Source: a bacterium
GTDB lineage: Bacteria > Patescibacteriota > Minisyncoccia > Phycocordibacterales > Zambryskibacteraceae
Direction of reading: 5' to 3'
DNA length: 64,000 nucleotides
NCBI GenBank assembly: GCA_030649135.1
Contig: JAUSGI010000008.1
Location: 1-64,000, forward strand
Shown: positions 13,682 through 42,716 of the stretch, piece after piece
Layout of the letters: each line of letters begins with the position of its first letter
Numbering within the stretch: the stretch's first letter is position 1
Notes under the pieces: model-generated
Seen by the model: only the letters and a program-made list of their open reading frames with translations
Database searches by the model: none
What the model was told of the DNA's origin: nothing
Program-made: the position numbers and the translations under genes

Positions 13682-14068
13682 TTAGAGAAGCTCGAGATCT
13701 CCGAAGAACATCTCGTGCAGGTTGATGTCGGGTTTGCCCTCGCCGTCGTTGTGGTAGAAAATGATACTCCAAGGGGCAGGCTGTCTGTTGATTCCGAATG
13801 AGATCGACGGTGTCACGGTATCCCTCGTCCACTGTCGGGGAAGTTGACTCGTGATCAGTGTGAATCCATTGGAATTGCCGTGTAGCTCGATCCCGTGGAT
13901 TGTACCGCTGATTCGAACGAGCCCTTCTTCTCCCCATCCTTTGGGTACTACCATTTCGTATGTGAAGGCGAACTTGCGGCCGATGAGCTCACGCTCTTCG
14001 GGTAAGCCCGCTTCAGTGAGGAGAGACTGCAGTTTCCTGCCCAACGCCTCCCTGGCTTGCGGATCCAT
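13682..14068 (-). CDS. hypothetical protein; GC-rich orphan inserted between dnaK and dnaJ
   Basis: ORF with SD GGAAGAGG upstream of the internal ATG at 14068; own terminator; no recognisable domain. Confidence 0.5.
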   Translation of the reverse strand: MDPQAREALGRKLQSLLTEAGLPEERELIGRKFAFTYEMVVPKGWGEEGLVRISGTIHGIELHGNSNGFTLITSQLPRQWTRDTVTPSISFGINRQPAPWSIIFYHNDGEGKPDINLHEMFFGDLELL

Positions 14069-14144
14069 TTCGAACCTCTTCCTGCATCTCTCGATGCACT
14101 GAAATCGCACAACTCTGGGGCTACGATACTATATTTGTGAGTTT

Positions 14145-14381
14145 ATGTCAAGTATACTTAAAGTCAAAAAATCTTATAATAAGTACATGCAAATTCTGGA
14201 TATAAAGTTGCACAAACAAGTTAAAATGGTTTCCAAAAGGCTTGGCTTAAATCCTCGTGAGGTTATAAATCGCGCAGTTTCTTCTTACCTCGGTAGTATG
14301 AAAGAACTCACAGACCTTCAGAAAGAGCTTCATCTGTGGGATGTTTTGTCTGCACAAACAATGCAAAAATATAAGTTCTAG
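14145..14381 (+). CDS. ribbon-helix-helix (CopG/MazE-like) antitoxin
   Basis: 78 aa; LDIKLHKQVKMVSKRLGLNPREVINRAVSSYL; sits 3 nt upstream of the MazF-like ORF. Confidence 0.6.
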   Translation: MSSILKVKKSYNKYMQILDIKLHKQVKMVSKRLGLNPREVINRAVSSYLGSMKELTDLQKELHLWDVLSAQTMQKYKF

Positions 14382-14383
14382 AT

Positions 14384-14707
14384 ATGAAACCGGGTGATGT
14401 ATATATTGTTCGTATTCCCGAACTCGGTACTCACGAACAGAGTGGAACAAGACCTGTAGTGGTCATTGCTCGAGTTACAAAAACCATCGTTACAATCATC
14501 CCTTGCACTGGAAATAAACTTGCTCTTCGTTTCCCATACACATATGAGATAGAAGCAACAAAAAGGAACGGTCTATCTGTCAATTCTGTAGCACTCGTAT
14601 TTCATATTCGCGCTCTTGACTCCTCTTTTCTTAAGGATAAAATAGGCGAACTCGATAAGAAAGTACTTGCAAATATACGAAAACAAGCAAGACAACTTAT
14701 TGGATAA
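14384..14707 (+). CDS. MazF/PemK-family endoribonuclease toxin
   Basis: PGDVYIVRIPELGTHEQSGTRPVVVIA (PemK/MazF N-terminal signature); 107 aa. Confidence 0.75.
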   Translation: MKPGDVYIVRIPELGTHEQSGTRPVVVIARVTKTIVTIIPCTGNKLALRFPYTYEIEATKRNGLSVNSVALVFHIRALDSSFLKDKIGELDKKVLANIRKQARQLIG

Positions 14708-14773
14708 ATTTTACAATGAAAGATTATTACCCCAGTAGCATAGCAAAGCTAGCTACGGGGCAGGCAAAATTCT

Positions 14774-15661
14774 ATGAAAGATTACTATAAGATACTCGGT
14801 ATAAGTCGTGATGCTTCAGAGGAGGAAATAAAAAAGGCCTTTCGTAAGCTCGCGCACGTTCATCATCCGGATAAATCTGGCGGCAACGAAGCGAAGTTTA
14901 AGGAAGCAAGCGAGGCCTACTCCGTGCTCTCCGACAAAAAGAAGCGTGCCCAATATGATGCCCCCGGTTTCGCGGGCTTTCAAGGCAGTCAAGCCGGCGG
15001 GGCAGGATTTGACCCATCCGGGTTTGGTTTCGATTTCTCCGGTTTCGGCAACGCCGGTTTCGATACGTCTGACTTGGGTGATATTCTTTCAAGCATTTTT
15101 GGTGGACGCCGTGTGCGCCGCGGTCGTGACATCGCTGTAGATATTGAGCTCTCTTTCCAAGAATCTATCTTCGGCGCGGAGAGAAAAGTGGTCATTAACT
15201 CAAAGTTTGTAAAGCAGAAGGAAGTTTCAATAGGCGTACCGCCCGGCATTGATGACGGTCAGATGGTTCGTCTCACCGGTCAGGGCGAAATTCTTGAGGG
15301 CGGGGTGCCAGGCGACTTGTATGTCAAAGTTCATGTTCGTAAGCATCCGTATCTGCGCAAAGAGGGATATAACCTGATAATGGATTTGGAAATTAAACTG
15401 ACCGAGGCACTCCTGGGCGCAGAAAAAATTATTCATACTCTAGACGGGGAAATTACTTTGAAAATTGCGGCCAGCACCAAACATGGCAGTATCTTGCGGG
15501 TTAAAGGGAAGGGAGTGCCAACCGGAGGTCGCCCCGCCTTCGCTGAAGCTTCGGCGGGTAAAAGAGGCGACCTCTACATACGCATCTCTGTCCAAATCCC
15601 AGAAAAACTTTCCCCAGATGCCCGCAGGACGGTTGAGGAATTGAAGAAACTGGGGTTGTAA
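14774..15661 (+). CDS. dnaJ: DnaJ-family co-chaperone lacking the Cys-rich Zn-finger (CbpA-like)
   Basis: J-domain with HPD, G/F-rich linker, C-terminal substrate domains; no CxxCxGxG repeats. Confidence 0.85.
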   Translation: MKDYYKILGISRDASEEEIKKAFRKLAHVHHPDKSGGNEAKFKEASEAYSVLSDKKKRAQYDAPGFAGFQGSQAGGAGFDPSGFGFDFSGFGNAGFDTSDLGDILSSIFGGRRVRRGRDIAVDIELSFQESIFGAERKVVINSKFVKQKEVSIGVPPGIDDGQMVRLTGQGEILEGGVPGDLYVKVHVRKHPYLRKEGYNLIMDLEIKLTEALLGAEKIIHTLDGEITLKIAASTKHGSILRVKGKGVPTGGRPAFAEASAGKRGDLYIRISVQIPEKLSPDARRTVEELKKLGL

Positions 15662-15670
15662 TTGTTTAAA

Positions 15671-15698
15671 TTGACAGGGTATCTGTTTGGGGTAGAAT
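15671..15698 (+). promoter_or_regulatory. sigma70-like promoter (TTGACA-N16/17-TAGAAT) for the small Zn-ribbon gene
   Basis: TTGACAgggtatctgtttggggTAGAAT, then GGGAGGAGGTG SD and the ATG. Confidence 0.5.
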
Positions 15699-15716
15699 TT
15701 CGGGAGGAGGTGAACT

Positions 15717-15917
15717 ATGAGCCTTTGTGCGTCTTGTGGTCTCCAGCTTTCCGGCGAAGCCGGGCTATGCCCACACCATCATTGCGTTTATGGCGACGAC
15801 TGGGCTGTTGCCAACCGGCTGATGTGCGACCTGCTTCACCGCCGGCGGGTACCACCGCGTTTGTCGGTAACCGAGCGTGACGACGACTTCTGGGGGGCGA
15901 CTGGCGACGCGGCCTAG
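15717..15917 (+). CDS. small GC-rich Cys/His-rich (zinc-ribbon-like) protein, 66 aa
   Basis: very strong SD GGAGGAGGTG 7 nt before the ATG; CASCG...CPHHHC; own promoter and terminator. Confidence 0.55.
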   Translation: MSLCASCGLQLSGEAGLCPHHHCVYGDDWAVANRLMCDLLHRRRVPPRLSVTERDDDFWGATGDAA

Positions 15918-31175: not shown

Positions 31176-31406
31176 ATGAACCTCAAGCTAACCCGGCATT
31201 TCCAGGACATGATACAGCATCGGGGAATAGAGCTGGATGATGTCAAAAGGGCACTTAGCTCATCGGACGAAACAGTAGATGCCCATGATGGGGCTTTAAA
31301 GGTAACAAAACAAATTGGGGATAAAAAAATCGAGGTGATATACTGTAGGGAGACATTCAAAGATAGAAAAGACGAATACTTAATAATCACGGCATATTAT
31401 TTGTAA
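31176..31406 (+). CDS. DUF4258-like small protein (putative toxin-like component)
   Basis: 76 aa; promoter-like TTGACA at 31146. Confidence 0.5.
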   Translation: MNLKLTRHFQDMIQHRGIELDDVKRALSSSDETVDAHDGALKVTKQIGDKKIEVIYCRETFKDRKDEYLIITAYYL

Positions 31407-31409
31407 AAT

Positions 31410-31643
31410 ATGAAAATAGATTACGACAAAGTAGCAGATGCAATTTATTTCACTGTTAAAAGTGATAAAGTTGCTAAGTCTATAAAAGTAGACGACAGGC
31501 TTGTCGTCGACCTTTCCGCGTCGGGTGATATCGTCGGAATGGAACTATTAGATGCATCTTCAAAACAAGGGCAAGAACTTGAAAACAATATAAAGCAAGG
31601 AGTTCCCATAAATATTATCTCTGCCACACCGGTAACAGCTTAA
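31410..31643 (+). CDS. DUF2283-like small protein
   Basis: MKIDYDKVADAIYFTV (YDxxxDAxY motif); 77 aa. Confidence 0.55.
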   Translation: MKIDYDKVADAIYFTVKSDKVAKSIKVDDRLVVDLSASGDIVGMELLDASSKQGQELENNIKQGVPINIISATPVTA

Positions 31644-32052: not shown

Positions 32053-35000
32053 ATGACAAAACTCATGGGGGTAATTCTTAGCTTAGTGCTAATGGCCGGG
32101 TCGGTCCAAGCGGCCACCTTAGATGACATAGTATTTACAGAAATAATGGCGACTCCCAATGCTGTGGCTGATGCCGACGGCGAGTGGATTGAAGTTCAGA
32201 ACAATTCTTTAAGCCCAGTAGATATTGGAGGTTGGATATTAAACGATGGTTCAGATCACACTATTTCCGGACCTTATTCTATACCAGCGGGTGAGAAAGC
32301 GGTAATCTGTCGCGACAATGATTCCTCTGTAAATGGAGGAGTTAAATGCCATTATCAATCAGTTATGGTCCTAACTGACATTGGTAAAACTCTGCAACTT
32401 CTTGAGGGGGTGACCACTATAAACGAGGCTACATACGGAGACACTGCTGGAAATTCGGGAAAATCAGTTTATATTCCTAGTGGAAGTTTCGAGTCTGTTA
32501 GTCAATTTGGAAATGGCGATTATGGAACTCCGGCTGGGAATGGTGCATCAATTGGAACTCATTCCTACGCTTCGATTCAGATTGCAATTGATGCGGCAAT
32601 TTCCGGTAACACGATAGATGTTGGAGCGGGGACTTACGCGGAGAATGTTTCGCTTGACGGAAAGACAAATCTTACAATTCAAGGCGCTGGAGAGGCAACC
32701 ATTATTGAACCAGCAAGCGGAATTGGTTTTGCAATTAAAAATTCAAGCGGCATAACAATAAAGAATCTTAAAATACATACCACAGGAACCAATGCCCATG
32801 GTGTCTGGGTTGCGGGAACTCCGAATGGCGGAGCAACGGCGGTAACTGGTCTTACCGTACAAGATGACACCATAGTTGTTGACGGTTATTCCAGCGGCAT
32901 TTACGCCGAACAAGTTGATACAACACCTCATTCTGGCTGGCTAATAACAGGGAACACTATAACTGTAAATCCTGGCGCTGGTGTTACTGGTGATGGAATG
33001 GACTTGCACGATGTGTCGGGTTCGGAGGTAAGCTACAACACAATAATTCTGAATACTCCGACTGATAGCACAAATGTTCTCTGGACAAGCGAATTGTCAA
33101 ATCTTTCTAGTCTCATATTCTCCAATAACACCATCAGTGGCTCAAGCGGTAGTGAGATAGCAATCCTAACTGATTTTCTGGATGCTCTAGCAGATACATC
33201 AATTACCACCGTAACAGTAAGTGGAAACACGTTCAGTAATTGGGGTTCTAGGGCCCTAAGAGTCGGGACGGCTAACGGAACCGGAGCGGTGACGGAAATC
33301 GCAGTAAATTCAAACATATTCCAAATGGCCGCCGACACAACAGAAGTTATCGGCGGCACGGCTGCGTCAAGTGCGACTGGTAGCGGCAATATCTTCAATG
33401 TTAGTGGGACAGCAAAAATTCAAAAAGCGGTAGACGGGGCATTTTCTGGCGACACGATAAATGTCGCAGCGGGGACTTATGACGAACAGGTCGTAATAGA
33501 TGGAGAAGACCTGATATTACAAGGTGTTGGTGATACAACTATCATCCGACCATCTGCACCCGCAACGCTTACCCAGACTTATACCTTCCCAGCCGGAACT
33601 TTTTGGTCTGGCACAACTGCATCAAGTATTATCCTAGTGGAAAATGCCAGCGCTGTTACTATAAAAGATCTTAAAGTAGACGGTATTAATGTTACCAGTT
33701 TGCCCTTAACAGGTTCGCCTGACAGACTCGTCGGAGTTCTTTTGGGAGTATCTTCAGGTACCATTGATAATGCTACGGTCACTTCCATTAAAACAGCTGG
33801 CTATGCAAACCGTACATATGGCATTGAAGTAAGTGGCGCTGATAGTGGCACTTACAGCGTTGAAGTTAAAAGTTCTCATATAACAGACTGGGCTCGTAAT
33901 GGGATTGTTGCAGATGGAACTAATCTTACGGCCAACATCAATCACAACACGCTTGTAGGTCCTGGTACTATCTCTGGGCAGGTCGCTAACGGCATTCTTT
34001 TCATTGGTGGAGCTGCTGGTAACACTACAAGTAATACTATCAGCGGAATGCACTACAACGCAGATCCAGTATCTCGCAGTGCCGGTATCTTGATTTATGG
34101 CGCAACCACGGCCGGAATCTTGATAGACCAAAATGACATTTCCGATACGGATGATGGAATAAATTTGTCGGCCAGTTCTCATAACGCGACTGTCAGCAAC
34201 AACAATCTGCATAATAATCTAGAAGTAGGTATACAACTAGAAAACGGGACAGCAAACAACGCCATAACTGGGAACACAATTGTTAATAATACAATGGCTG
34301 GTATACGTTTTGGCGGTGCAGGTGATCCGGTTCCCGCGGAAGCGGATACTCCACCTGGGGCAGGTAATGTTGCTAATGATAAAAATACGATTACTGGTAA
34401 CGCGAACGGTATAGTAAATTACGATACGGGTCTTGGACAGATATTTGATGCCGCCAACAACTGGTGGGGCAACGTGAGCGGACCGTTCAACACTACAAGC
34501 AATCCTTTGGGAACCGGTGATTCTATTTCCGACAATGTAAACTTTGTTCCGTGGTATTCCACTAGCGGAATGACGACGCTTGTTTCCGCAAACATGATTG
34601 CTTACAATACCGCCTTGGATGCCGTTAGTCAGACGGACTACACGACTGCAAGCTGGTCTGCCTACCAAGCAATTGTGACTGCCAATACGAGGACCGACCA
34701 AAACACTCAAACTGAAGTTGATGACGCGACGGCCGCAATCACTACCGCGCAACTTGATCTGATTGCTATTGCCGACCTCACTGATTACAACACCGCTTTA
34801 GACGCAGTTGTTGAAAGCGATTATACGACCGAAAGCTGGGCAACGTATCAAGCTATTGTGGACGCCAATGTGGTAACCGACCAACATACCCAAGCTGAAG
34901 TTGATACAGCAATCGATAATATTACCATCGCGCAAGATGATTTAGTGGCAACACTGGACGTAGCAAAAACAACGGCACATGAAGCTCTTACAACTGCTCG

Positions 35001-35985
35001 CGCGTTATATACAGATACAAACTACACCGCTGAAAATCTAGTGGTCTTAAACGGATTCAAGTCGGATGGCGATATCGCGATTGACTCCGCTTCAGACTTA
35101 GCCGGAGTGTCCACAGCGCAGAACACAGCTACTGCTGGAATGGCCGGTGTGTTAAAAAATACACAAACAGCTCCTGACGATGACGGAAATGCGACAATGG
35201 ACTCTGACACAACGGAAGTGGTTATCACAGACCCGGATCAACCTGTTGACATTACAATTGAAAGTGGCACAGAAAATCCGACAATTGATGTTAGTGCATT
35301 TATTACCGATGGAATAGGAATATTGCCGGAGATTACAATCAATTCCGACGTAGCGGATGTTATAATTCCGGATAGTACGACAGTGACTGGCCCGACTGAT
35401 TGGGATGGGGTCATTAGCGTACCAACGGCTACCACTACTACTGGCACTGCCCCAGCTGGGTTTAGCGTTGGCGGTACTGTTATCTCGGTCGGTTCGTCTC
35501 AAGGAACATTAACCTTCAGTAATCCCGTTACGATATTACTTGCAGGTGTTACTGGAACAGTTGGCTACAAACCAGCTGGTTCAGATACTTGGCAGACGAT
35601 AACCAATGTTTGTGCCGACCCGTATGCAACTCCAGGCAACCCTCCAGCCGGTAGCGAATGCGCAATATCAAATGGTACTGATACTAAAATTGTCACCTTC
35701 CACTTCACGGAATTTGGAGAATTAGATTCTATTCCAGCTACGCCTATCCCTCCTCGTTCAAGCAGGGCAGGAGACTTTTCTCCGGCCGCGCGCAGAGCAA
35801 TCTTGGCAGCGACACCCAATGCATCAGCAGTATCGGTTGTAGGTCAAGTCCTTGGAGCCTTCACTGAAGATGAAAGACAGGCTCAAATTGTGTCCGTCCG
35901 CGGGCAACTTATAGAGAAGATAAATCAACTAATCGGTCTCTTGCGGGTGCAACTTGCAGCGGCCATAACAGCAGGCGATCAATAA
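32053..35985 (+). CDS. 1310-aa secreted surface protein: signal peptide, lamin-tail domain, long right-handed beta-helix (PbH1/NosD-like), three FIVAR-like repeats, C-terminal conserved module
   Basis: signal peptide; LTD VFTEI...GEWIEVQN...GGWILND; GAGTYAENV, NNWWGNVSGPFN; YTxxSWxxYQxxVxxANxxTDQxTQxEVD repeats. Confidence 0.85.
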   Translation: MTKLMGVILSLVLMAGSVQAATLDDIVFTEIMATPNAVADADGEWIEVQNNSLSPVDIGGWILNDGSDHTISGPYSIPAGEKAVICRDNDSSVNGGVKCHYQSVMVLTDIGKTLQLLEGVTTINEATYGDTAGNSGKSVYIPSGSFESVSQFGNGDYGTPAGNGASIGTHSYASIQIAIDAAISGNTIDVGAGTYAENVSLDGKTNLTIQGAGEATIIEPASGIGFAIKNSSGITIKNLKIHTTGTNAHGVWVAGTPNGGATAVTGLTVQDDTIVVDGYSSGIYAEQVDTTPHSGWLITGNTITVNPGAGVTGDGMDLHDVSGSEVSYNTIILNTPTDSTNVLWTSELSNLSSLIFSNNTISGSSGSEIAILTDFLDALADTSITTVTVSGNTFSNWGSRALRVGTANGTGAVTEIAVNSNIFQMAADTTEVIGGTAASSATGSGNIFNVSGTAKIQKAVDGAFSGDTINVAAGTYDEQVVIDGEDLILQGVGDTTIIRPSAPATLTQTYTFPAGTFWSGTTASSIILVENASAVTIKDLKVDGINVTSLPLTGSPDRLVGVLLGVSSGTIDNATVTSIKTAGYANRTYGIEVSGADSGTYSVEVKSSHITDWARNGIVADGTNLTANINHNTLVGPGTISGQVANGILFIGGAAGNTTSNTISGMHYNADPVSRSAGILIYGATTAGILIDQNDISDTDDGINLSASSHNATVSNNNLHNNLEVGIQLENGTANNAITGNTIVNNTMAGIRFGGAGDPVPAEADTPPGAGNVANDKNTITGNANGIVNYDTGLGQIFDAANNWWGNVSGPFNTTSNPLGTGDSISDNVNFVPWYSTSGMTTLVSANMIAYNTALDAVSQTDYTTASWSAYQAIVTANTRTDQNTQTEVDDATAAITTAQLDLIAIADLTDYNTALDAVVESDYTTESWATYQAIVDANVVTDQHTQAEVDTAIDNITIAQDDLVATLDVAKTTAHEALTTARALYTDTNYTAENLVVLNGFKSDGDIAIDSASDLAGVSTAQNTATAGMAGVLKNTQTAPDDDGNATMDSDTTEVVITDPDQPVDITIESGTENPTIDVSAFITDGIGILPEITINSDVADVIIPDSTTVTGPTDWDGVISVPTATTTTGTAPAGFSVGGTVISVGSSQGTLTFSNPVTILLAGVTGTVGYKPAGSDTWQTITNVCADPYATPGNPPAGSECAISNGTDTKIVTFHFTEFGELDSIPATPIPPRSSRAGDFSPAARRAILAATPNASAVSVVGQVLGAFTEDERQAQIVSVRGQLIEKINQLIGLLRVQLAAAITAGDQ

Positions 35986-35998
35986 CTCCCAAACGCTC

Positions 35999-36514
35999 CT
36001 ACGCGTGGTTGTATAACAGTTTAAGTTTCTCAAGCCCTCGGTGTGCTTGCACGGCCATAGCATTCTTTGATTGTCCGGTGATAAGAGCCATTTCTTTGAG
36101 TGACAGATTTTGCACGTACCGCATGCGTATCACTTTCTGGTATTTTGTCGGAAGATGTTGAATTAATAGGAGTGCCGCTTTCCCGTCTAGGGTGTTGAAA
36201 AGAAGTTCGGAATGTTCAACGCTCGGCTCGTAGCCTTTTTCAAGTAGGACATCAAGGGAAGTGGTTTTGTGCTTCCGATATTCATCAATGATAAGATTAT
36301 TGAGGACGTGGTAGAGAAAAGCTTTCATGACATCAATCTTCCCTCCTTTCACGAGGTAGGCCCATGTTTTCATGAAGGTGTCTTGTACTAAGTCTTCGCC
36401 CCTAGCATGGTCGTGTATCTTGAAAAAGGCATGTGCATTGAGTCCCTTTTCGTAGTCATTGTGTGCTAGGGTTAATACTGTCTGTTGGCGCACCTTCTGT
36501 TTGGGGGTCATCAT
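35999..36514 (-). CDS. ECF-type sigma-70 family sigma factor
   Basis: region 2 (DLVQDTFMKTW) and region 4 (LSLKEMALITGQSKNAMAVQAHRGLEKL). Confidence 0.8.
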   Translation of the reverse strand: MMTPKQKVRQQTVLTLAHNDYEKGLNAHAFFKIHDHARGEDLVQDTFMKTWAYLVKGGKIDVMKAFLYHVLNNLIIDEYRKHKTTSLDVLLEKGYEPSVEHSELLFNTLDGKAALLLIQHLPTKYQKVIRMRYVQNLSLKEMALITGQSKNAMAVQAHRGLEKLKLLYNHA

Positions 36515-36768
36515 ATATTAAGCATTAAGCCGAATCTCGGCGTGTCTTATTACAAAATTATTACAATCTGACTGCGACAAAGAGAGAAATAACCATATCT
36601 ATAGGCCTTAAATACCGTTAGGTCTGACCCTTTTTCTCTACACAGATATTACAGTAAGTATAACATACTTGGGATATCAGTGCGTTATGTAATAAATAGA
36701 GCTTTCTAGCGGCCTTATTGGTATAGAAACGACTTAATCCCACCGTTGACATTTCTGGATTAAATATC

Positions 36769-37152
36769 ATGCAAACACCCAAAACAATACTAATCATAGA
36801 AGATGAGAAAAGTCTTCGCGATGCCATCGTGGACATTCTACGTCTCAAAAACTTCTTGTCTCTTGAGGCAAAAAATGGTAGAGAGGGGGTGGAGCTCGCG
36901 CTCTCCAAACACCCTGACCTCATTTTGCTTGACCTTATTATGCCGGAGATGGACGGTATAATTGCGCTCAAAAATATTCGAGAAGATGCTTGGGGGAAAA
37001 AAGTTCCCATTATTATTCTAACGAATTTGAGTGCGACCAATGAACAGTTTGGGGATGATAAGGCGACGCTTAAGGCAACGCATTATTTAATTAAATCGGA
37101 TTGGAAGCTGCATGATATCGCAAAGAAGATCGAAGAAATATTGGAAACTTAA
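36769..37152 (+). CDS. stand-alone response-regulator receiver (CheY-like)
   Basis: ILIIEDEKSLRD...LILLDLIMPEMDG. Confidence 0.85.
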   Translation: MQTPKTILIIEDEKSLRDAIVDILRLKNFLSLEAKNGREGVELALSKHPDLILLDLIMPEMDGIIALKNIREDAWGKKVPIIILTNLSATNEQFGDDKATLKATHYLIKSDWKLHDIAKKIEEILET

Positions 37153-37160
37153 AATACTCC

Positions 37161-39182
37161 ATGAATAAAAAAACTATCATCTCTGCGTCCGATGATATAA
37201 TCCTAAATCTCAAAGTTTCGGCTAAGGAAAAAGAAATTGTCAGGCGCAAACTTGCTGTAACAGCAGAGAGGCTTGCTGCGACGGCAGTGAAACTTGCCAT
37301 AACAGCTAAGGAAAGAGAAAGTGTGAGGATTAAGCTAGCGGTGACTGCCGAAGAAAAGGAACATGTCAGGCTTAAGTTAGTGGTGACCGCAGAGAAGCTT
37401 GCTGTAATCGCAGAGAAGCTTGCTGTGACTGCCGAGGAAAAGGAAAGTGTCAGGCGCAAACTTGCCGTGACGGCAGCCAAACTTGCAGTAACGGCAGCTA
37501 AACTCTCCGCAACTACTGAGGAAAAAGAAAGTGTGAGACGCAAGAAGCTAGTCGCGACAGCAGCTAAGCTTGCTGTAACAGCAGAGAAGCTTGCTGCGAC
37601 CGCCAAAGAAAAGGAGAGTGTCAGGCGCAAACTTGCTGTGACCGCAGCCAAACTTGCTGTGACAGCAGAGAAGCTTGCCGCGACGGCCAAGGAAAAAGAA
37701 ATTGTTAGGCGTAAACTCGTCGTGACGGCAGAAAAGCTAGTCGTGACGGCAGCCAAACTCGCCGTGACAGCAGAGAAGCTTGCCGCGACGGCAGCCAAAC
37801 TCGCAGTAACTGCTAAGGAAAAAGAAATTGTTAGGCGTAAACTTGCAGCGACTGCTAAGGAAAAAGAAAGTGTCAGGCGCAAGCTGGTAGTGACTGCTAA
37901 GGAAAAAGAAAGTGTCAGGCGTAAGCTGGTGGTGACAGCCAAGGAAAAGGAGAGCGTCAGGCGTAAGCTGGTGGTGACAGCAGCTAAACTTGCTGTAACT
38001 GCAGCGAAACTCAAAAAGTCGTACGAAACACTCGAGAAGAAAGTGCTTGAACGAACCAAGAGTCTAGAAATGTCCAGAGCAAAGGAAGAGGCGGTTTTGC
38101 TCTCGATTGGTGACGGACTTCTTGTGACTAATGAAAAAGGAAATGTTATTATTATAAATAAGACAGCTGAAAAACTACTCGGTATTAAGAGTAAAGAAGC
38201 TATGGGAAAGGTCTTTTCCGAAGCCGTTCTTTTGGTAGATGAAAAAGGGGTGCCTATTCCGTCAGAGAAACATCCCGTAAGGATGGCTCTAGTAAGCGGC
38301 ATTACTACTGCCACTACTATTGTAGGTTCCACTTACTATAATGTGCGGAAAGATAAAACGAAATTTCCTGTGGCAATTATGGTCACGCCCGTTATTCTTG
38401 ACGGGAAGGTGATTGGAACAATTGAAGTTTTTCGAGATATTACCGCCGAGCGGGAAATTGATAAAGCCAAAACCGAATTTGTTTCCCTTGCTTCACACCA
38501 GCTCCGCACCCCGCTTTCTACGGTCAATTGGTACGCGGAAATGCTTCTGGCCGGAGATGTGGGGGAGTTGAATGAAAAACAAAAGAAATATTTAGATGAG
38601 GTATATCGCAGTAATCAGCGAATGGTTGAATTGGTAAACGCCCTTTTGGATGTCGCTTCTCTTGAAATTGGTACCTTTGTGGTTGAGCCGGAACCAACCG
38701 ATATAATCGAACTAGCGCAAAGTGTCATAGACGAACAAAAACCGCAGATTGAGGCCAAAAAAATAGTATTTTCTTTTTCATTCGGGAAAAATATTTCACT
38801 TATGCAGGCCGACCCCAAACTCCTGCGAATGATAGTGCAAAATATCTTGTCAAATGCGGTAAAATATACTCATGAAGGCGGGAAAATCGATATGTCGATT
38901 TCCTTAGCGGACAAAAATAATATTCTTCTGAAAGTCGATGATACGGGCTACGGCATACCCCAAAATCAGCAAGATAAAATATTTACCAAGCTGTTTCGGG
39001 CCGATAATGTCAGAGATAAAGACACGGACGGCACGGGCCTCGGGCTCTATATTGTAAAGTCAGTCGTTGAAAATTCTGGCGGGAAAATCTGGTTTAAGTC
39101 CGTGGGCGGGGAAGAAAATAAAGGCACCACCTTTTATGTATCGCTGCCTTTGGATGGGGCGAAAAAGCCGGCTAATATATAA
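37161..39182 (+). CDS. sensor histidine kinase: N-terminal repetitive coiled coil, PAS, HisKA, HATPase_c
   Basis: heptad KEKESVRRKLAVTAAKLAVTAEKLAAT repeats; PAS; H-box SLASHQLRTPL; HATPase N/G boxes. Confidence 0.85.
   Translation: MNKKTIISASDDIILNLKVSAKEKEIVRRKLAVTAERLAATAVKLAITAKERESVRIKLAVTAEEKEHVRLKLVVTAEKLAVIAEKLAVTAEEKESVRRKLAVTAAKLAVTAAKLSATTEEKESVRRKKLVATAAKLAVTAEKLAATAKEKESVRRKLAVTAAKLAVTAEKLAATAKEKEIVRRKLVVTAEKLVVTAAKLAVTAEKLAATAAKLAVTAKEKEIVRRKLAATAKEKESVRRKLVVTAKEKESVRRKLVVTAKEKESVRRKLVVTAAKLAVTAAKLKKSYETLEKKVLERTKSLEMSRAKEEAVLLSIGDGLLVTNEKGNVIIINKTAEKLLGIKSKEAMGKVFSEAVLLVDEKGVPIPSEKHPVRMALVSGITTATTIVGSTYYNVRKDKTKFPVAIMVTPVILDGKVIGTIEVFRDITAEREIDKAKTEFVSLASHQLRTPLSTVNWYAEMLLAGDVGELNEKQKKYLDEVYRSNQRMVELVNALLDVASLEIGTFVVEPEPTDIIELAQSVIDEQKPQIEAKKIVFSFSFGKNISLMQADPKLLRMIVQNILSNAVKYTHEGGKIDMSISLADKNNILLKVDDTGYGIPQNQQDKIFTKLFRADNVRDKDTDGTGLGLYIVKSVVENSGGKIWFKSVGGEENKGTTFYVSLPLDGAKKPANI
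37200..38010 (+). repeat. in-frame tandem repeats, 21-bp periodicity with 42- and 84-bp higher-order units
   Basis: e.g. three 42-bp units GCTAAGGAAAAAGAAAGTGTCAGGCGCAAGCTGGTAGTGACT at 37854-37979. Confidence 0.85.
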
Positions 39183-39190
39183 TTAATCAT

Positions 39191-39661
39191 ATGTCCAACA
39201 AATCTGTGAAAAAGCAAACCATTCTGGTAATAGAGGATGAGAAACCTCTGCTTGAGGCCATTAATGACAAACTTGAAAAAAGCGGTTTCGGTGTGATTGC
39301 GGCCCGTAGTGTGGAGCAAGCGTTCAACGCGAATATCGCGAAAAACGGCCTAGGTGTCATAAATGTTCGAAGCATCGAGCAAGCGCTTAATTATCTTGAA
39401 AGTTTGGAACGAGTAGACGCAATTTGGCTGGACCATCACCTTTTGGGCAAAGAAGATGGTCTTGATTTTGTAAAAAAATTTAAAGCAAATGGCGGGCGCT
39501 GGAGTAAAATTCCTGTCTTCGTAGTTTCGAATGCCGCCAGTCCCAAAACTGTCAAGTCTTATGTAGATTCCGGTGTGAGCAAGTACTATGTCAAATCCGA
39601 CCATCGACTCGATGAAATTATCAAAGACATTCAATCTTTTTTAGACCATTCGGCGAAATAA
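39191..39661 (+). CDS. stand-alone response-regulator receiver with an internal partial duplication
   Basis: ILVIEDEKPLLEAI...; duplicated ARSVEQAFN / VRSIEQALN segment. Confidence 0.75.
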   Translation: MSNKSVKKQTILVIEDEKPLLEAINDKLEKSGFGVIAARSVEQAFNANIAKNGLGVINVRSIEQALNYLESLERVDAIWLDHHLLGKEDGLDFVKKFKANGGRWSKIPVFVVSNAASPKTVKSYVDSGVSKYYVKSDHRLDEIIKDIQSFLDHSAK

Positions 39662-39763
39662 ACCGGTTGTAATATTTCCGTCTCTGGAACGGCATTTATG
39701 GCAAGGGTAGGTAGTAAACTCAACTATTCGCTCAAGTCATTAATTAAATAACTAGTAAAACAT

Positions 39764-41692
39764 ATGGAAAAATCTAATAAGGGTTCAATTATACTAACCG
39801 TGCTGACCGTCTCCCTTGTAATCGGTTTTCTGGGGTCAATGGTCGCGTATGCATTCGTAAGTCCAGCGACAGTCAATCTTGGAACAGCGGCTGATTTTGC
39901 GATTCTCTCGAAAGCGGGAATCACTAACGTTCCCACCTCTGTCATTACTGGGAATATCGGAACAAGTTTAGATGAAGCCAGTACTGATACTGCTTTCGCA
40001 GGTATCACGTGTGGCCAAGTGACGGGGTCAATATACTCGTTCAACTCGACAGGTCCTCTCCCTTGTGTGTTAGCTGACTCTGTATTGGCTACAACTGTAG
40101 TAAGTACGGCCGTAGGCGATATGGAAACTGCAATAACCGATGCCAACAGCCGAACACCTGATGATATCGACCTTGCATTCAATGCGGGCGTAGGATGTGC
40201 TCTTGGCACTTGTGACCTCGCGGGGCTTACTCTCGCTCCCGGCGTCTATACATTCACAGCTCCTGGCAATGTCATCATCACAAACGATGTTACCCTCTCG
40301 GGTAGCCCAAGTGATATTTGGATATTCATCATCCCGGGGACTCTTGATATCAGCTCTGCCAAGAAGGTTCTTCTAACCGGCGGCGCAGTATCTGACAATG
40401 TCTTCTGGTCAGTTGCTGGCGCGACTCAACTTCAAACATCTTCTACGTTCGAGGGAAATATCCTTGAAGCAGGAACGCCTCTTGCGATGCTCTCCGGTGC
40501 TACACTACACGGAAGAGCACTGTCGAAATTCGCAGTTACGCTCGATGCCAATACCGTTACGACTCCTTCCGCCACACCACCTCCGACAACCGGTCCGGTT
40601 TTCGTGGAAGAGGGGGTTGCGAACGGTACTCTTGATTTAGGAGAACTATTCTTCAACACCGTTCAATCAGCAATCGATGACGCAGGTACTCTTTCCGGCG
40701 ACACCATTCACGTTACCGCAGGAACTTACAACGAAAGTATCGTAGTTAACAAATCATTAACGCTCAATTCCGTGGGAGCAGTCATAAACGGCTCGGCGGG
40801 ACAAAATGGTGTTTCTATCGGGGCAAGTGATGTTACGGTTAACGGCTTCGAAGTTACTTCTAGCGGTCTTAGTGGAGTCTACGGTATCGCTGAAACAACG
40901 CCTGTCAGTAACACAGTTATTACCCACAACGTCGTTCACGGCTTTCCCGCATTGGGTATTGCGTTGGCGGCTGGTTCTGTCAATGCAGAAGTTACAACTA
41001 ACGAAGTCTACGATGTGTACGGAGGCATCTATCTTTCTACCGGCGCAATCGGTGCACTTGTAGACGGTAACGATGTTCACGACTTAGTAAGCGGTGCTGG
41101 TCCTGACCAGGGAGCCGCGGTCGCGTTTGAAGGAAACAACACAGATGTTTCGGTAACCAACAACACTCTCACAAATAACGCTTTCGGTCTCTATGTGTGG
41201 TCTGCGTTCGGTTCTGACTTTACCGGCACTGTAGTTGAGCATAACAAATTTGTAGGCAACACAGACGGTGTGGAAAATACCAATACTGGTATTATCAACG
41301 CTTCTCCGAACTGGTGGGGAGCTGTCACAGGTCCGACTCATGCCACCAACCCTAGCGGTCTAGGCGATGCGGTGAGCGACAATGTTACTTTTGACCCATG
41401 GTATGTGGACGAGGCTATGACCACGCTGTCAAATGCCCCGGCTCCAGCTCCCGCTCCAGCACCAGAACCAGAACCAGAATCAAGGGGTTCAAGGTCCGGT
41501 GACTCACGAAGAGTTTCTGCTCAAACTGCCAATGTAGTGGTGGGCGAAATCCTCGGCATCTTTACCGAAGCTGAAAGACTGGCACAGATTGCGACTGTTA
41601 AGGTTCAACTGTCCTCTCTTATCCGCCAACTGATCGGTTTATTACAGGCCCAATTGATTACGGCGCTTCAGACAGAGATTCGGAACTATTAA
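39764..41692 (+). CDS. 642-aa surface protein: DUF3494 (ice-binding-like) N-domain, Thr/Pro linker, PbH1 beta-helix, C-terminal conserved module
   Basis: LGTAADFAILSKAGITNVPTSVITGNIG; GTYNESIV, SPNWWGAVTGP; C-term GIFTEAERLAQI...QLIGLL. Confidence 0.8.
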   Translation: MEKSNKGSIILTVLTVSLVIGFLGSMVAYAFVSPATVNLGTAADFAILSKAGITNVPTSVITGNIGTSLDEASTDTAFAGITCGQVTGSIYSFNSTGPLPCVLADSVLATTVVSTAVGDMETAITDANSRTPDDIDLAFNAGVGCALGTCDLAGLTLAPGVYTFTAPGNVIITNDVTLSGSPSDIWIFIIPGTLDISSAKKVLLTGGAVSDNVFWSVAGATQLQTSSTFEGNILEAGTPLAMLSGATLHGRALSKFAVTLDANTVTTPSATPPPTTGPVFVEEGVANGTLDLGELFFNTVQSAIDDAGTLSGDTIHVTAGTYNESIVVNKSLTLNSVGAVINGSAGQNGVSIGASDVTVNGFEVTSSGLSGVYGIAETTPVSNTVITHNVVHGFPALGIALAAGSVNAEVTTNEVYDVYGGIYLSTGAIGALVDGNDVHDLVSGAGPDQGAAVAFEGNNTDVSVTNNTLTNNAFGLYVWSAFGSDFTGTVVEHNKFVGNTDGVENTNTGIINASPNWWGAVTGPTHATNPSGLGDAVSDNVTFDPWYVDEAMTTLSNAPAPAPAPAPEPEPESRGSRSGDSRRVSAQTANVVVGEILGIFTEAERLAQIATVKVQLSSLIRQLIGLLQAQLITALQTEIRNY

Positions 41693-41723
41693 CACCGATA
41701 CTCTCACTCTGGACTGATTAAAA

Positions 41724-41759
41724 GAACCACCCCGGCATCACGCCGGGGCGGTTCTTTAT
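41724..41759 (+). terminator. rho-independent terminator
   Basis: GAACCACCCCGGC-atca-CGCCGGGGCGGTTC then TTTAT. Confidence 0.65.
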
Positions 41760-41783
41760 CCTCACTAAATAAGGTAAAATGAC

Positions 41784-42716
41784 ATGATGCGCCGAAAACT
41801 AAAGAATACCTTTATACCGCATCGCGGTAATCACCACCACCCCCATATACTGCGGCATAAGTCTCTCTCTGCCGTCTTGACTGTCGTAGTGCTCCTCGAG
41901 TTTACGATGCTTCTAAGTCCATTCGTGTGGCCGCGTCTTGGTATAGAGCTTGCGACGGTATTGCCCTCTGTGGTTACCCTTCTTACCAATAATGCCCGCG
42001 CGGAGGGCCACATCGCGAATGTAAAAGTGAACGATATTTTGACTCTCGCCGCGCAGGCCAAAGCCGATGACATGGCCTCCAAGGGATATTTTTCCCATAT
42101 AGGTCCAGATGGTACCAAACCGTGGTACTGGTTTAAGCAGGCAGGGTATCAGTATCAGTATGCCGGTGAAAATTTGGCGGTGAACTTCGCTAATTCGGAG
42201 GGGGTAGTAAAGGCTTGGCAGAATTCTCCCATGCATAATCTTAATCTTCTTGGCCCGCGCTATACCGAGACCGGAGTAGGTATTGCCACCGGTATGTACA
42301 AGGGTAGAGAGGCTGTGTTTGTGGTGCAGTTTCTCGCTTCATCACAGAAGACAGAGGCGGGTGTAGTAAATGCTACCTCCACCTTGCCTAAAGTATCTGG
42401 TATTCCCAGCCCTCTGAATATGGTGAATCCATTGGTGCTCGGCGTATCCACGGAGGATACCGGCAACCAATCCATATGGTTGCGCATTATCTCATCGCCA
42501 CGAACCTATGGCACGTATGCACTTTTCGTACTCACCTTCCTGTTCTTACTGGTACTTCTTACCGGTTGGGGCAGGCATCGTCCTAGGGCGTTAGTGTATG
42601 GAGTAATGATGGTGGGGCTACTGGCTGGAGTAATATTTATGAACAAGTATCTGACATTTCCGCAACCGGAACTCTCGGAAGATACTCAGAATGGGGCATC
42701 ATTTAACTCGCGGTAA
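41784..42716 (+). CDS. CAP/SCP/PR-1-like extracellular domain protein with TM segments
   Basis: GYFSHIGPDG...GENLAVNF...AWQNSPMH...TETGVGIA. Confidence 0.7.
   Translation: MMRRKLKNTFIPHRGNHHHPHILRHKSLSAVLTVVVLLEFTMLLSPFVWPRLGIELATVLPSVVTLLTNNARAEGHIANVKVNDILTLAAQAKADDMASKGYFSHIGPDGTKPWYWFKQAGYQYQYAGENLAVNFANSEGVVKAWQNSPMHNLNLLGPRYTETGVGIATGMYKGREAVFVVQFLASSQKTEAGVVNATSTLPKVSGIPSPLNMVNPLVLGVSTEDTGNQSIWLRIISSPRTYGTYALFVLTFLFLLVLLTGWGRHRPRALVYGVMMVGLLAGVIFMNKYLTFPQPELSEDTQNGASFNSR

Follow-up and report, generated by a model that had tools for sequence, protein, structure and literature searches.

Two exported proteins with a shared C-terminal module

The window analysed here, a 64-kb stretch of DNA, encodes two Sec-exported beta-helix proteins, each of which carries a Pro/Ser/Arg-rich linker followed by a tail module of the same type. 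Both genes and the parts of their C-terminal regions lie on the plus strand:

32053-35985, plus: gene 1, an open reading frame translated into 1310 aa; in order, signal peptide (MTKLMGVILSLVLMAGSVQA), Lamin-tail domain, right-handed beta-helix repeats, Ig-like C-terminal region, linker and tail
35725-35841, plus: linker 1 (DSIPATPIPPRSSRAGDFSPAARRAILAATPNASAVSVV), of low complexity and predicted to be disordered
35842-35865, plus: motif 1, GQVLGAFT, which represents the best-conserved family element
35866-35970, plus: helix 1 (EDERQAQIVSVRGQLIEKINQLIGLLRVQLAAAIT), followed by four residues (AGDQ) to the protein end
35983-35985, plus: stop codon of gene 1
39764-41692, plus: gene 2, 642 aa, directly upstream of a CAP gene; in order, signal peptide, Ice_binding/DUF3494 domain, beta-helix repeats, linker and tail
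41429-41542, plus: linker 2 (SNAPAPAPAPAPEPEPESRGSRSGDSRRVSAQTANVVV), Pro/Ser/Arg-rich and of low complexity
41543-41566, plus: motif 2, GEILGIFT, a G-x-[VI]-L-G variant
41567-41689, plus: helix 2 through to the C-terminus (EAERLAQIATVKVQLSSLIRQLIGLLQAQLITALQTEIRNY), identified from its alignment with helix 1
35842-35982 and 41543-41689, plus: the aligned tail modules

Protein 1 (MDO8590148.1, recorded as [quoted passage not shown]) matches the Pfam families LTD (1.8e-10) and Beta_helix (5.7e-17) and has NosD-type repeats too, and protein 2 matches Ice_binding (3.9e-47) and Beta_helix (5.7e-10). When the whole proteins are compared by BLASTP, the tails form a separate HSP with 35 of 71 residues identical (49%, E 1e-13), bearing out the initial annotation, which had aligned them after their linkers; 27 of 63 columns are identical in the tail alignment. 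Both tails follow the pattern G-[QE]-[VI]-L-G-x-F-T, then a predicted helix of ~35 residues. At the DNA level, 81 of 147 aligned tail bases are identical (55%) rather than the ~65% first estimated, which strengthens the original point that these are old paralogous domains and not a recent copy. The start first given for the second module, 41520, is out of frame, and the module as quoted begins at 41528. A six-frame HMM scan confines the module to these two ORFs in the window, the next match having E > 5.

A family of tails on CPR surface proteins

A profile made from the two sequences retrieved 56 cluster representatives at E <= 1e-3 in an exhaustive HMMER search of 1.84 billion proteins, so the tail does occur in other proteins. 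In 52 of the 56, the module is C-terminal, with at most a few residues between it and the protein end. Members with names belong to Parcubacteria, Zambryskibacteria and Saccharibacteria, and essentially all full-length members have a signal peptide. The passenger domains are unrelated to one another and precede the tail at a position where anchors sit: among 47 members, they include Bact_surface_Ig-like (18), Beta_helix (10), Ice_binding (4) and PG_binding_1 (4), with MBG_2, YDG, HYR and Peptidase_S8 also found in the family. Four mini-proteins (P0010, P0027, P0029 and P0047) consist of a signal peptide, a linker and the tail alone, with no passenger.

The module had been called unrecognised, and this description stands. 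Neither the two window tails nor the 47 family members scanned singly have a consistent Pfam or NCBIfam match, and HMMs of LPXTG, PEP-CTERM, PGF-CTERM and GlyGly-CTERM type sorting signals match none of them. No sequence relative of the tail was found in the PDB, nor was the module found in the literature searched. The tail is a real, previously unannotated C-terminal module of CPR/Patescibacteria surface proteins.

An invariant motif followed by a predicted helix

The family motif has the consensus G-x-V-L-G-A-[FSE]-T, with G-x-V-L-G nearly invariant (G 46/47, V 45/47, L 46/47, G 47/47, then A 41/47 and T 40/47 in the 47-member alignment). It is better conserved than the helix, from which it is separated by a variable spacer of 2-15 residues. 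Members are ordered as Sec signal peptide, variable extracellular passenger, disordered linker, motif, spacer and helix. For a 78-aa fragment of protein 1, AlphaFold2, given the family alignment as input, predicts one helix at residues 40-74, with pLDDT 92-98 (10-residue block means, residues 41-70), preceded by linker 1 at pLDDT 46-52 and by motif 1 at pLDDT ~60 without secondary structure.

The helix is ~32-35 residues long, ends at the C-terminus and is rich in Ala (19%), Leu (18%), Gln (15%) and Ile (14%), which together make up 66% of it; aromatics account for < 0.5% and the net charge is ~+0.7. Its conserved hydrophobic positions, at offsets 0, 3, 7, 10, 11, 14, 15, 17 and 18, have the a/d(/e) spacing of heptads, with Gln strongly conserved between them at three sites, which points to protein-protein contacts. 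The tail had been proposed to form an amphipathic helix; a single helix is indeed predicted, but its amphipathicity is weak (hydrophobic moment 0.22 versus 0.16 for shuffled sequences). The best 19-residue Kyte-Doolittle window has a mean of 1.45 and reaches at least 1.6 in 14 of 53 tails, and analysis of tail composition and hydropathy shows neither a TM segment nor a basic cluster after the helix. A weak match to the COMP pentameric coiled coil (E 0.0019) is seen in one of the 47 members.

A conserved CAP-domain membrane protein next to the tail genes

Immediately downstream of gene 2 lie two further features:

41730-41748, plus: GC-rich hairpin with 7 G-C pairs, then a weak T tract
41784-42716, plus: CAP-domain membrane protein, 310 aa (Pfam CAP, 5.6e-16); in order, conserved cytoplasmic N-terminus (FIPHRGNHHHPH), TM1, CAP ectodomain, linker containing LVLGVST, SPRT, TM2 and TM3

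The CAP gene is the only one in the window and belongs by Pfam to the CAP/SCP/PR-1 superfamily (PF00188). The hairpin lies in the 91-nt gap between the two genes and may be a partial terminator, judged by consensus match alone in a region where terminator-like sites are not enriched.

The same arrangement recurs elsewhere. In all 11 tail-seeded loci examined (the window, L001 to L005, the P0005 contig and L086 to L089), a tail gene is directly upstream of a CAP/PF00188 membrane protein gene on the same strand. These loci represent at least 7 different gene surroundings and come from Parcubacteria as well as Saccharibacteria, but 5 of the 11 are syntenic and the loci are thus not fully independent. 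At L003, the tail gene adjoining the CAP gene is that of the mini-protein P0010. As an independent test, 80 loci were gathered with the CAP protein, not the tail, as query. The motif G.[VI]LG[AVETSLI] is present in the last 160 aa of 26 of the 40 immediately upstream genes versus 10 of 377 other genes (Fisher p = 2.8e-23). The suggestion that the tail might co-occur with a dedicated gene holds insofar as it has a conserved neighbour, but this is a CAP-domain membrane protein and not a sortase or exosortase.

The CAP proteins have a related sequence of their own. The consensus of their juxtamembrane linker (37 sequences) contains VLGxE; the strict motif is rare in them (3/67), while a looser VLG is common. 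In the CAP domain, H105 and H151 are invariant and E129 is at least 90% conserved. A CPR-enriched transmembrane CAP family (3.6k.fam08817) was described by Meheust et al. (bioRxiv 10.1101/335083), who give it neither function nor partner; here, in contrast, CAP proteins are coupled to G-x-VLG surface proteins. The literature searched yielded no report of this coupling, and the pairing of tail and CAP genes is a new finding.

A tie to PG_binding_1

Near CAP genes, the G-x-VLG motif is followed by one of three alternative C-terminal modules, namely the tail helix, PG_binding_1 or a TM helix. PG_binding_1 (PF01471), which anchors proteins to the wall non-covalently, takes the same C-terminal place in the gene upstream of CAP in other CPR lineages, and a PG_binding_1-like domain follows the motif in 18 of the 26 motif-bearing upstream genes. 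In 4 of the 47 family representatives, PG_binding_1 is directly beside the module. The unit GxVLG + helix + PG_binding_1 in P0021 is 58% identical over 111 aa (E 1e-38) to the N-terminal helix + PG_binding_1 of a protein encoded just upstream of a Saccharibacteria tail gene, with the helices in register. The tail HMM also weakly matches N-terminal helices flanking PG_binding_1 (E 0.003-0.03). A single PG_binding_1-associated helix could serve a purpose other than oligomerisation. The window tails, in contrast, have no PG_binding_1 domain or HMM match, so any wall attachment would be indirect, through helix-helix pairing.

Proposed envelope retention and alternative explanations

We propose, with about an even chance of being right, that the tail is a lineage-specific CPR/Patescibacteria module for envelope retention and assembly that works with the adjacent CAP membrane protein. 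After export of the tail protein by Sec, the heptad-patterned helix with its broad hydrophobic face would form a coiled coil or helical bundle, either with its own copies or with the homologous helices flanking PG_binding_1 in CPR wall-binding proteins, and this pairing would keep the passenger on the cell envelope. The exposed G-x-VLG motif would be a recognition site for a conserved partner, most likely the neighbouring CAP membrane protein, a putative role suggested by gene adjacency, which would dock or process the tail protein. The initial annotation had proposed a sorting, anchoring or oligomerisation signal. The anchor position on diverse exported passengers agrees with that proposal, and the function itself is inferred.

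The tail has much in common with the C-terminal sorting signals of the LPXTG/sortase, PEP-CTERM/exosortase, PGF-CTERM/archaeosortase and GlyGly-CTERM/rhombosortase systems: it occupies the extreme C-terminus of Sec-exported proteins with many unrelated passengers, has a short invariant motif closely trailed by a helix, and adjoins, in a member gene, the gene of a conserved membrane protein. It is possible, though unlikely, that it works as they do. G-x-VLG would then be a processing site, with the helix, PG_binding_1 or TM segment holding the precursor until a dedicated enzyme, the CAP protein or one encoded elsewhere, cuts it and the passenger is released or covalently attached. This would suit a short motif that is better conserved than the helix, lies within a disordered stretch and stays constant while the module after it differs, in genes tightly clustered with one conserved membrane protein. 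It would also suit the retained His and Glu positions of the CAP domain, and the VLG in the CAP linker could be a pseudo-substrate or self-processing site. However, the tail motif, G-x-V-L-G-A-F/S-T, resembles no described signal and is set 2-15 residues from a Gln-rich, non-TM helix with no basic cluster behind it, and the neighbour is not sortase- or exosortase-like. Moreover, bacterial CAP domains have no established proteolytic or transpeptidase activity, passenger-less mini-proteins such as P0010, beside a CAP gene, leave nothing to sort, and only one or two tail genes are seen per locus, where sorting systems typically have many substrates.

The helix might instead serve purely for oligomerisation, with neither anchoring nor a tie to CAP, making passengers dimers, trimers or pentamers in the manner of the C-terminal coiled coils of fibre and beta-helix proteins. 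In favour of this are its heptad-patterned Ala/Leu/Gln/Ile sequence with conserved Gln in core register, the beta-helix passenger carried by each window protein and by 10 of the 47 members, and the COMP match. Nevertheless, we regard this as quite improbable, since it gives no reason for the invariant motif, for a CAP neighbour in 11/11 loci, or for PG_binding_1 or TM modules taking the place of the helix at the locus. The COMP match is weak and limited to one member, and the tail is also found alone and on very diverse, non-fibrous passengers.

Low-molecular-weight PBPs (PBP5/6) are held by C-terminal amphipathic-helix membrane anchors. A similar in-plane or marginal anchor, lying on or partly in the outer face of the cytoplasmic membrane, would fit a C-terminal, non-TM helix of moderate hydrophobicity on Sec-exported proteins, and such hydrophobicity could allow membrane insertion or association, but we think it very improbable. 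Compared with PBP5/6-type carboxypeptidases by description, the tail shows a low hydrophobic moment, almost no aromatics, no aromatic or basic face, little net charge, three strongly conserved Gln sites and an invariant motif upstream, and its helix is likewise found on the N-terminal side of PG_binding_1 in soluble wall-binding modules.

Finally, chance likeness of low-complexity C-termini or a recent functionless local duplication, which the small helix alphabet and the linkers might suggest, is refuted by the pairwise E value under composition-based statistics, the position-specific conservation and C-terminal placement of 56 representatives, the 55% DNA identity and a genomic partner conserved across phyla.

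Possible recombination at the tail

Between the two tails lies a block whose gene contents were assigned by Pfam:

35986-41542: inter-tail block, ~5.6 kb, which also holds the passenger part of gene 2
35999-36514, minus: ECF sigma factor
36618-37040, minus: ORF of 140 aa
37161-39182: histidine kinase
39191-39661: response regulator

In the close relative L005 this block is absent, and a single chimeric tail stands in its position. By blastn, its positions 14035-14746 correspond to window 35169-35898 and 14716-15825 to window 41569-42694, which puts the join after the GxVLG motif and before the helix. The tail protein of L005, the S8-protease protein P0002, has a tail nearly identical to that of protein 2 and an unrelated passenger. 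Under the retention model proposed above, the conserved tail would act as a recombination boundary too, so that passengers could be exchanged in the position ahead of the CAP gene. The gene of protein 1 is itself not adjacent to the CAP gene but 5.8 kb upstream of it, probably because the block was inserted between them, as the comparison with L005 suggests.

Two exported proteins share a C-terminal module

Genes 1 and 2 each encode an exported protein in which a low-complexity linker is followed by the same tail module.

32053-35985, plus strand: gene 1, 1310 aa, with a Sec signal peptide, a Lamin-tail domain and right-handed beta-helix/NosD repeats
35725-35841, plus strand: Pro/Ser/Arg-rich low-complexity linker of protein 1
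35842-35982, plus strand: shared module of protein 1 (tail 1)
39764-41692, plus strand: gene 2, 642 aa, with a Sec signal peptide, an Ice_binding/DUF3494 domain and then beta-helix repeats
41429-41542, plus strand: Pro/Ser/Arg-rich low-complexity linker of protein 2
41543-41689, plus strand: shared module of protein 2 (tail 2)

When the whole proteins are compared by BLASTP, the tails form a separate HSP with 35/71 identities (E = 1e-13). At the DNA level only 81 of 147 positions (55%) are identical, so the tail copies are old; the initial annotation had reached the same view with an estimate of ~65%, which was too high, and had started the second tail at 41520, which is out of frame. A six-frame HMM scan of the 64-kb window found no third copy. 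The semi-conserved S-R-x-G-D-F motif in the linkers of both window proteins was discarded as a general feature, being present in 6 of 56 tail-family representatives.

The tail defines a family of exported proteins in CPR bacteria

Scanning species-representative genomes with the tail alignment yielded two loci, one in a Parcubacteria MAG (L001) and one in a Saccharibacteria MAG (L002), in which a beta-helix protein of 1007 aa has the shared module at its end. Word-indexed protein searches, which are insensitive to short queries, gave no match with tail alignments A1 and A2 and only five short proteins with a 47-member alignment, and an exhaustive search was therefore needed. A two-sequence HMMER profile run against 1.84 billion cluster representatives recovered 56 proteins at E ≤ 1e-3, of which 10 reached E ≤ 1e-10, so the module is present in many other proteins and is not a peculiarity of this pair.

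The module is real and C-terminal on exported proteins, its match ending about four residues or fewer from the C terminus in 52 of the 56 representatives and a signal peptide standing at the start of essentially all full-length members. We propose to define the family by a Sec signal peptide, the motif G-x-[VI]-L-G-[AVE]-x-T, a spacer of at most about 15 aa, and an Ala/Leu/Gln/Ile helix, about 32 aa long, that stops no more than about 5 aa short of the C terminus. Both window proteins have every one of these features, and their scores with the tail HMM built from the 56 members are 84 and 69 bits. Among the few members with a source name (Candidatus Parcubacteria, Candidatus Zambryskibacteria, "bacterium" or Saccharibacteria), the module is confined to CPR lineages.

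The passengers are mutually unrelated, with Pfam matches to Bact_surface_Ig-like (18), Beta_helix (10), Ice_binding (4) and PG_binding_1 (4), together with NosD, MBG_2, YDG, HYR and Peptidase_S8 domains. Four mini-proteins of 83-106 aa (P0010, P0027, P0029 and P0047) consist of a signal peptide, linker and tail alone. A chaperone dedicated to beta-helix folding was rejected, since the tail also occurs on unrelated passengers and on these mini-proteins.

A short invariant motif precedes a single predicted helix

The 56-member consensus of the tail is LPSASAAVVVGQVLGAFTEAERQAQIASIKAQLASLIQQLISLLQAQLAAAIAAG. Its most conserved element is the short motif G-x-V-L-G-A-(F/S/E)-T rather than the helix, with column counts in the 47-member alignment of 46/47 (G), 45/47 (V), 46/47 (L), 47/47 (G), 41/47 (A) and 40/47 (T), and a spacer of variable length (2-15 aa) lies between motif and helix. 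AlphaFold2, given the family alignment, predicts one helix and no strands in a 78-aa fragment. The helix spans residues 40-74 (window 35866-35970); averaged in 10-residue blocks, pLDDT is 92-98 for residues 41-70 and falls to 85 for residues 71-78. Values are lower in the linker (46-52) and in the motif region (about 60), which has no secondary structure. The module as modeled is thus a disordered invariant motif plus one helix.

Composition of the helix is 19% Ala, 18% Leu, 15% Gln and 14% Ile, with F+W+Y under 0.5% and a net charge of about +0.7. Its conserved I/L/V columns follow an a/d heptad (offsets 0, 3, 7, 10, 14 and 17) with extra e/b positions at 11, 15 and 18, and Gln is conserved at three positions. 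As a predicted continuous alpha-helix with hydrophobic a/d periodicity, it would qualify as a coiled-coil oligomerisation helix. The coiled-coil or amphipathic helix suggested initially is accordingly upheld in its heptad pattern, from AlphaFold2 and column conservation, but hardly in its amphipathicity, the hydrophobic moment, which peaks at a mean of 102 degrees, being 0.22 versus 0.16 in shuffled sequences, a modest excess. The helix is broad-faced and coiled-coil-like and differs both from a classical TM anchor and from an interfacial helix of strong amphipathicity. A TM anchor was rejected on hydropathy (the best 19-residue Kyte-Doolittle window averages 1.45), Gln content and the absence of a basic cluster, as the tails end in AAG(N/Q) without clustered Arg or Lys.

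The tail differs from known sorting signals

Models for LPXTG, PEP-CTERM, PGF-CTERM, GlyGly-CTERM, Por_Secre_tail and other curated sorting signals do not match the two window tails at E ≤ 1, and curated sorting-signal models of Pfam and NCBIfam match none of the 47 family members scanned individually, in keeping with the earlier description of the module as unrecognised. No Pfam or NCBIfam family matches the window tails; stray matches among the relatives, including COMP, FlgI and 4helix_suffix, were set aside as noise, no family occurring in more than 2 of the 47 members. A PDB profile search gave nothing meaningful, its sole match being a designed coiled-coil peptide with an E value of 6. 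A literature search on CPR sorting signals, the VLGA motif and CAP together with Patescibacteria found nothing relevant besides the Méheust preprint.

Unlike LPXTG/sortase signals (Gram_pos_anchor), both window tails lack an LPXTG-like pentapeptide as well as a TM segment followed by a C-terminal basic cluster. The T9SS C-terminal domain (Por_Secre_tail) is a beta-sandwich of about 80-100 residues, whereas the tail is predicted to be a single strandless helix. In two of the 56 representatives (P0020 and P0038), FP[ND]TG is found after the helix, within an extra C-terminal PGFP[ND]TGFAP[RK] that resembles a sortase motif without a TM segment. At locus L086 (4689-6653), a sortase gene lies directly upstream of the tail gene, in the order sortase, tail gene, CAP gene.

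PG_binding_1 (PF01471) is a three-helix bundle of about 57 aa whose model does not match the window tails, and in four family representatives, all among the 47 scanned, it stands directly before or after the module. In P0021, motif, helix, GG and PG_binding_1 follow one another. Its alignment with the N-terminal helix and PG_binding_1 domain of a 649-aa protein, whose gene directly precedes the Saccharibacteria tail gene, extends over 111 residues with 58% identity (E = 1e-38) and places the helices in register. The tail HMM also detects the N-terminal helices of PG_binding_1 proteins in L002 and L004, weakly and against a small database (E = 0.003-0.03). By sequence, the tail helix appears to be a free-standing form of the helix found alongside PG_binding_1 in CPR wall-binding proteins. 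A regular-expression scan of the 64-kb window found no PG_binding_1 protein.

Tail genes lie directly upstream of a CAP membrane protein gene

41784-42716, plus strand: CAP gene, encoding a 310-aa membrane protein with a PF00188 domain, 91 nt downstream of gene 2

The protein encoded by this sole CAP gene of the window scores 59.9 bits against PF00188 (cut-off 21.1, E = 5.6e-16). A tail gene lies immediately upstream of a CAP gene on the same strand in 11 of 11 loci examined, which are partly interrelated: the window (gene 2), L001, L002, L003 (mini-protein P0010), the P0005 contig, L004, L005, L086, L087, L088 and L089 (CAP gene cut off by the end of the contig). Locus representatives were picked without knowledge of gene context. 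Five of the loci have the synteny of the window (ScpA/B, S11 carboxypeptidase, GT4, the variable surface-protein slot, CAP, FtsW, MurG), and the other six have unrelated flanks (ComEA-like and MsrA/B; resolvase; FtsK and RecA; sortase and S41; MacAB and Dus; DUF5679 and flavodoxin). The tail gene is thus coupled to the CAP membrane protein gene. Co-occurrence with a dedicated sortase/exosortase-like or secretion gene had been envisaged; a conserved neighbour is indeed present at all 11 loci, but it is a CAP-domain membrane protein.

The CAP proteins are orthologous and have a common order of a cytoplasmic N terminus (FIPHxxNxHxPH), TM1, the CAP ectodomain, a variable linker, "SPR", TM2, a short loop (QHP or RH) and TM3. 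The CAP superfamily cavity has conserved His/Glu residues. Among 37 CPR orthologues, with the canonical tetrad mapped by eye, the ectodomain has invariant H105 and H151, and E129 conserved at 90% or more. The N terminus is His/Pro-rich, with the consensus KKxFIPHxxNxHxPHxLR and nearly invariant P12, N16 and P20 (alignments A4 and A9). Conservation of this N terminus and of the "SPR...TM2...QHP...TM3" half suggests that there may be a cytoplasmic-side event too, either metal binding or signalling. Judged by its description, the CAP membrane protein family 3.6k.fam08817 of Méheust et al. fits the window protein.

Between gene 2 and the CAP gene, 41730-41748 holds the strongest hairpin of the region, with 7 G-C pairs (CCCCGGCATCACGCCGGGG), which may attenuate read-through, so that more surface protein than CAP protein is made. 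Three otherwise different loci have an ECF-type sigma factor gene and a small ORF beside it no more than a few kb from the tail-CAP pair, a recurrence that may be a regulatory link or a coincidence.

Window 35999-37040, minus strand: ECF-type sigma factor and small ORF
L086 3364-3897, minus strand: ECF-type sigma factor and small ORF
L087 1-521: ECF-type sigma factor and small ORF

The motif recurs at loci collected from the CAP side

As an independent test, 80 metagenomic loci were gathered with the CAP alignment instead of the tail, and their neighbouring genes were then examined. Few of the upstream genes match the tail HMM, and those weakly (L037/L066 and L040/L041/L043), but their C termini are strikingly uniform. 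The strict motif G.[VI]LG[AVETSLI] occurs in the last 160 residues of 26 of the 40 non-redundant genes immediately upstream of CAP, compared to 10 of 377 among all other genes of the same loci (odds ratio 68, Fisher p = 2.8e-23). Directly after the motif, 18 of the 26 have a PG_binding_1-like domain, which in some cases bears a Cys-containing extension; in others the motif leads into a helix, the L040 type having the order PG_binding_1, GGQVLGVST, helix. A third kind of module after the motif is found in small Ig-like proteins divergent from the CAP gene, in which G-x-[VI]LG-[AS]-[ED] is followed by a conserved KNAxxNPxGxFWYxLQTLYxYLLT segment and then a TM anchor.

L006 3879-4682, minus strand: small Ig-like (Big_3_5) protein
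L021 2695-3342, minus strand: small Ig-like (Big_3_5) protein
L044 2784-3545, minus strand: small Ig-like (Big_3_5) protein
L072 5336-5974, minus strand: small Ig-like (Big_3_5) protein

The constant element around CAP genes is therefore G-x-VLG, and the C-terminal module that follows is interchangeable among helix, PG_binding_1 and TM helix. VLG is also present in the juxtamembrane linker of the CAP proteins ("VLGxE" in the 37-sequence majority consensus, NPLVLGVSTED in the window protein).

A recurrent PG_binding_1 variant among the CAP-upstream genes (L020, L013, L018, L023, L046, L058, L077 and others) carries a Cys immediately behind the motif (GxVLGxxTxCGxYL) and is extended at the C terminus by a segment that ends in ...TGYVYKTTxRxINxxxCPxLxLPxPxLP. 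Its two Cys probably form a disulphide, and the variant is apparently an unannotated CPR sub-family.

A proposed envelope-retention role and a possible sorting system

CPR/Patescibacteria are mostly uncultured episymbionts whose surface proteins mediate host attachment, and to our knowledge the way in which these proteins are attached to the envelope is essentially unknown. The present analysis adds a C-terminal module, defined well enough to be searched for, by which a set of variable surface proteins can be recognised, and a statistically strong genomic link between the G-x-VLG motif and a CAP-domain membrane protein. In the mechanism that we propose, the helix would provide envelope retention or assembly through coiled-coil formation, with its own copies or PG_binding_1-associated helices as partners, and the motif would be what a conserved partner recognises, the CAP protein being the most plausible candidate. 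It is conceivable, although we consider it rather improbable, that the motif, together with its retention module (helix, PG_binding_1 or TM), is the hallmark of a sorting/maturation system specific to CPR bacteria in which the CAP membrane protein acts by processing or docking. If so, a CAP-fold protein would take the role held elsewhere by sortases and exosortases, and the CAP-domain membrane protein family of Méheust et al. would gain a function. Recognition or processing of the motif by the CAP protein would constitute a new class of protein-sorting machinery and the first assigned envelope-biogenesis role for bacterial CAP domains.

The main rival to recognition and retention is that the tail is a true sorting signal with G-x-VLG as its cleavage site, cut by the CAP protein or by some other enzyme. 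Cleavage predicts a constant motif with a variable downstream module, the pattern seen around CAP genes; however, no CAP peptidase activity is established in bacteria, mini-proteins without a passenger exist, and the number of substrates is apparently small. A pure oligomerisation role, with which the heptad pattern is consistent, is less likely, and conservation is strongest in the motif. Likewise less likely is an interfacial membrane anchor: an amphipathic in-plane anchor has a high moment with a basic or aromatic face, features that the tail helix lacks. Chance similarity of the tails is excluded.

Tail-bounded exchange at a variable surface-protein slot

Gene 1 alone among the tail genes is not CAP-adjacent, because a ~5.6-kb block containing the ECF sigma factor, a 140-aa ORF, a histidine kinase, a response regulator and the gene 2 passenger lies between the window tails. 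This block is absent in L005, a close relative (DNA identity 80-86% for most flanking genes), whose slot upstream of the CAP gene holds a single surface-protein gene with S8 protease, HYR and Ig-like domains. Over the compared stretch (L005 14035-15825), the 3' end of that gene corresponds to gene 1 through the GxVLG motif (window 35169-35898), and from the helix start on the match is to window 41569-42694, in gene 2 and then the CAP gene. The L005 tail is thus chimeric, joined between motif and helix: GQVLGAFT agrees with tail 1, and the AER.AQIATVKVQLSSLIRQLIGLLQAQLITALQAEIRNY that comes next agrees with tail 2. In related genomes, the slot encodes a protein of 723, 1001, 1612 or 642 aa, with wholly different passengers but the same tail.

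The chimeric tail and the missing block are evidence that the conserved tail serves as a recombination boundary for passenger swapping at a hypervariable slot. The behaviour of the slot looks like cassette-like surface variation, and tail-bounded swapping at one locus would be a plausible route to it.

Two further features were noted in this region. The histidine kinase between the tail genes (37161-39182) has about 290 N-terminal aa without a TM segment, in which 21-nt (7-aa) tandem repeats at 37248-37981 (KLAVTAE / KEKESVRRKL), with higher-order periods of 42, 84 and 171 nt, encode a long, heptad-perfect repetitive coiled coil ahead of the PAS/HisKA/HATPase part. Just upstream of gene 1 and inside the variable slot, 31176-31643 holds a toxin-antitoxin-like DUF4258/DUF2283 gene pair (76 and 77 aa), and L005 has different small genes there.
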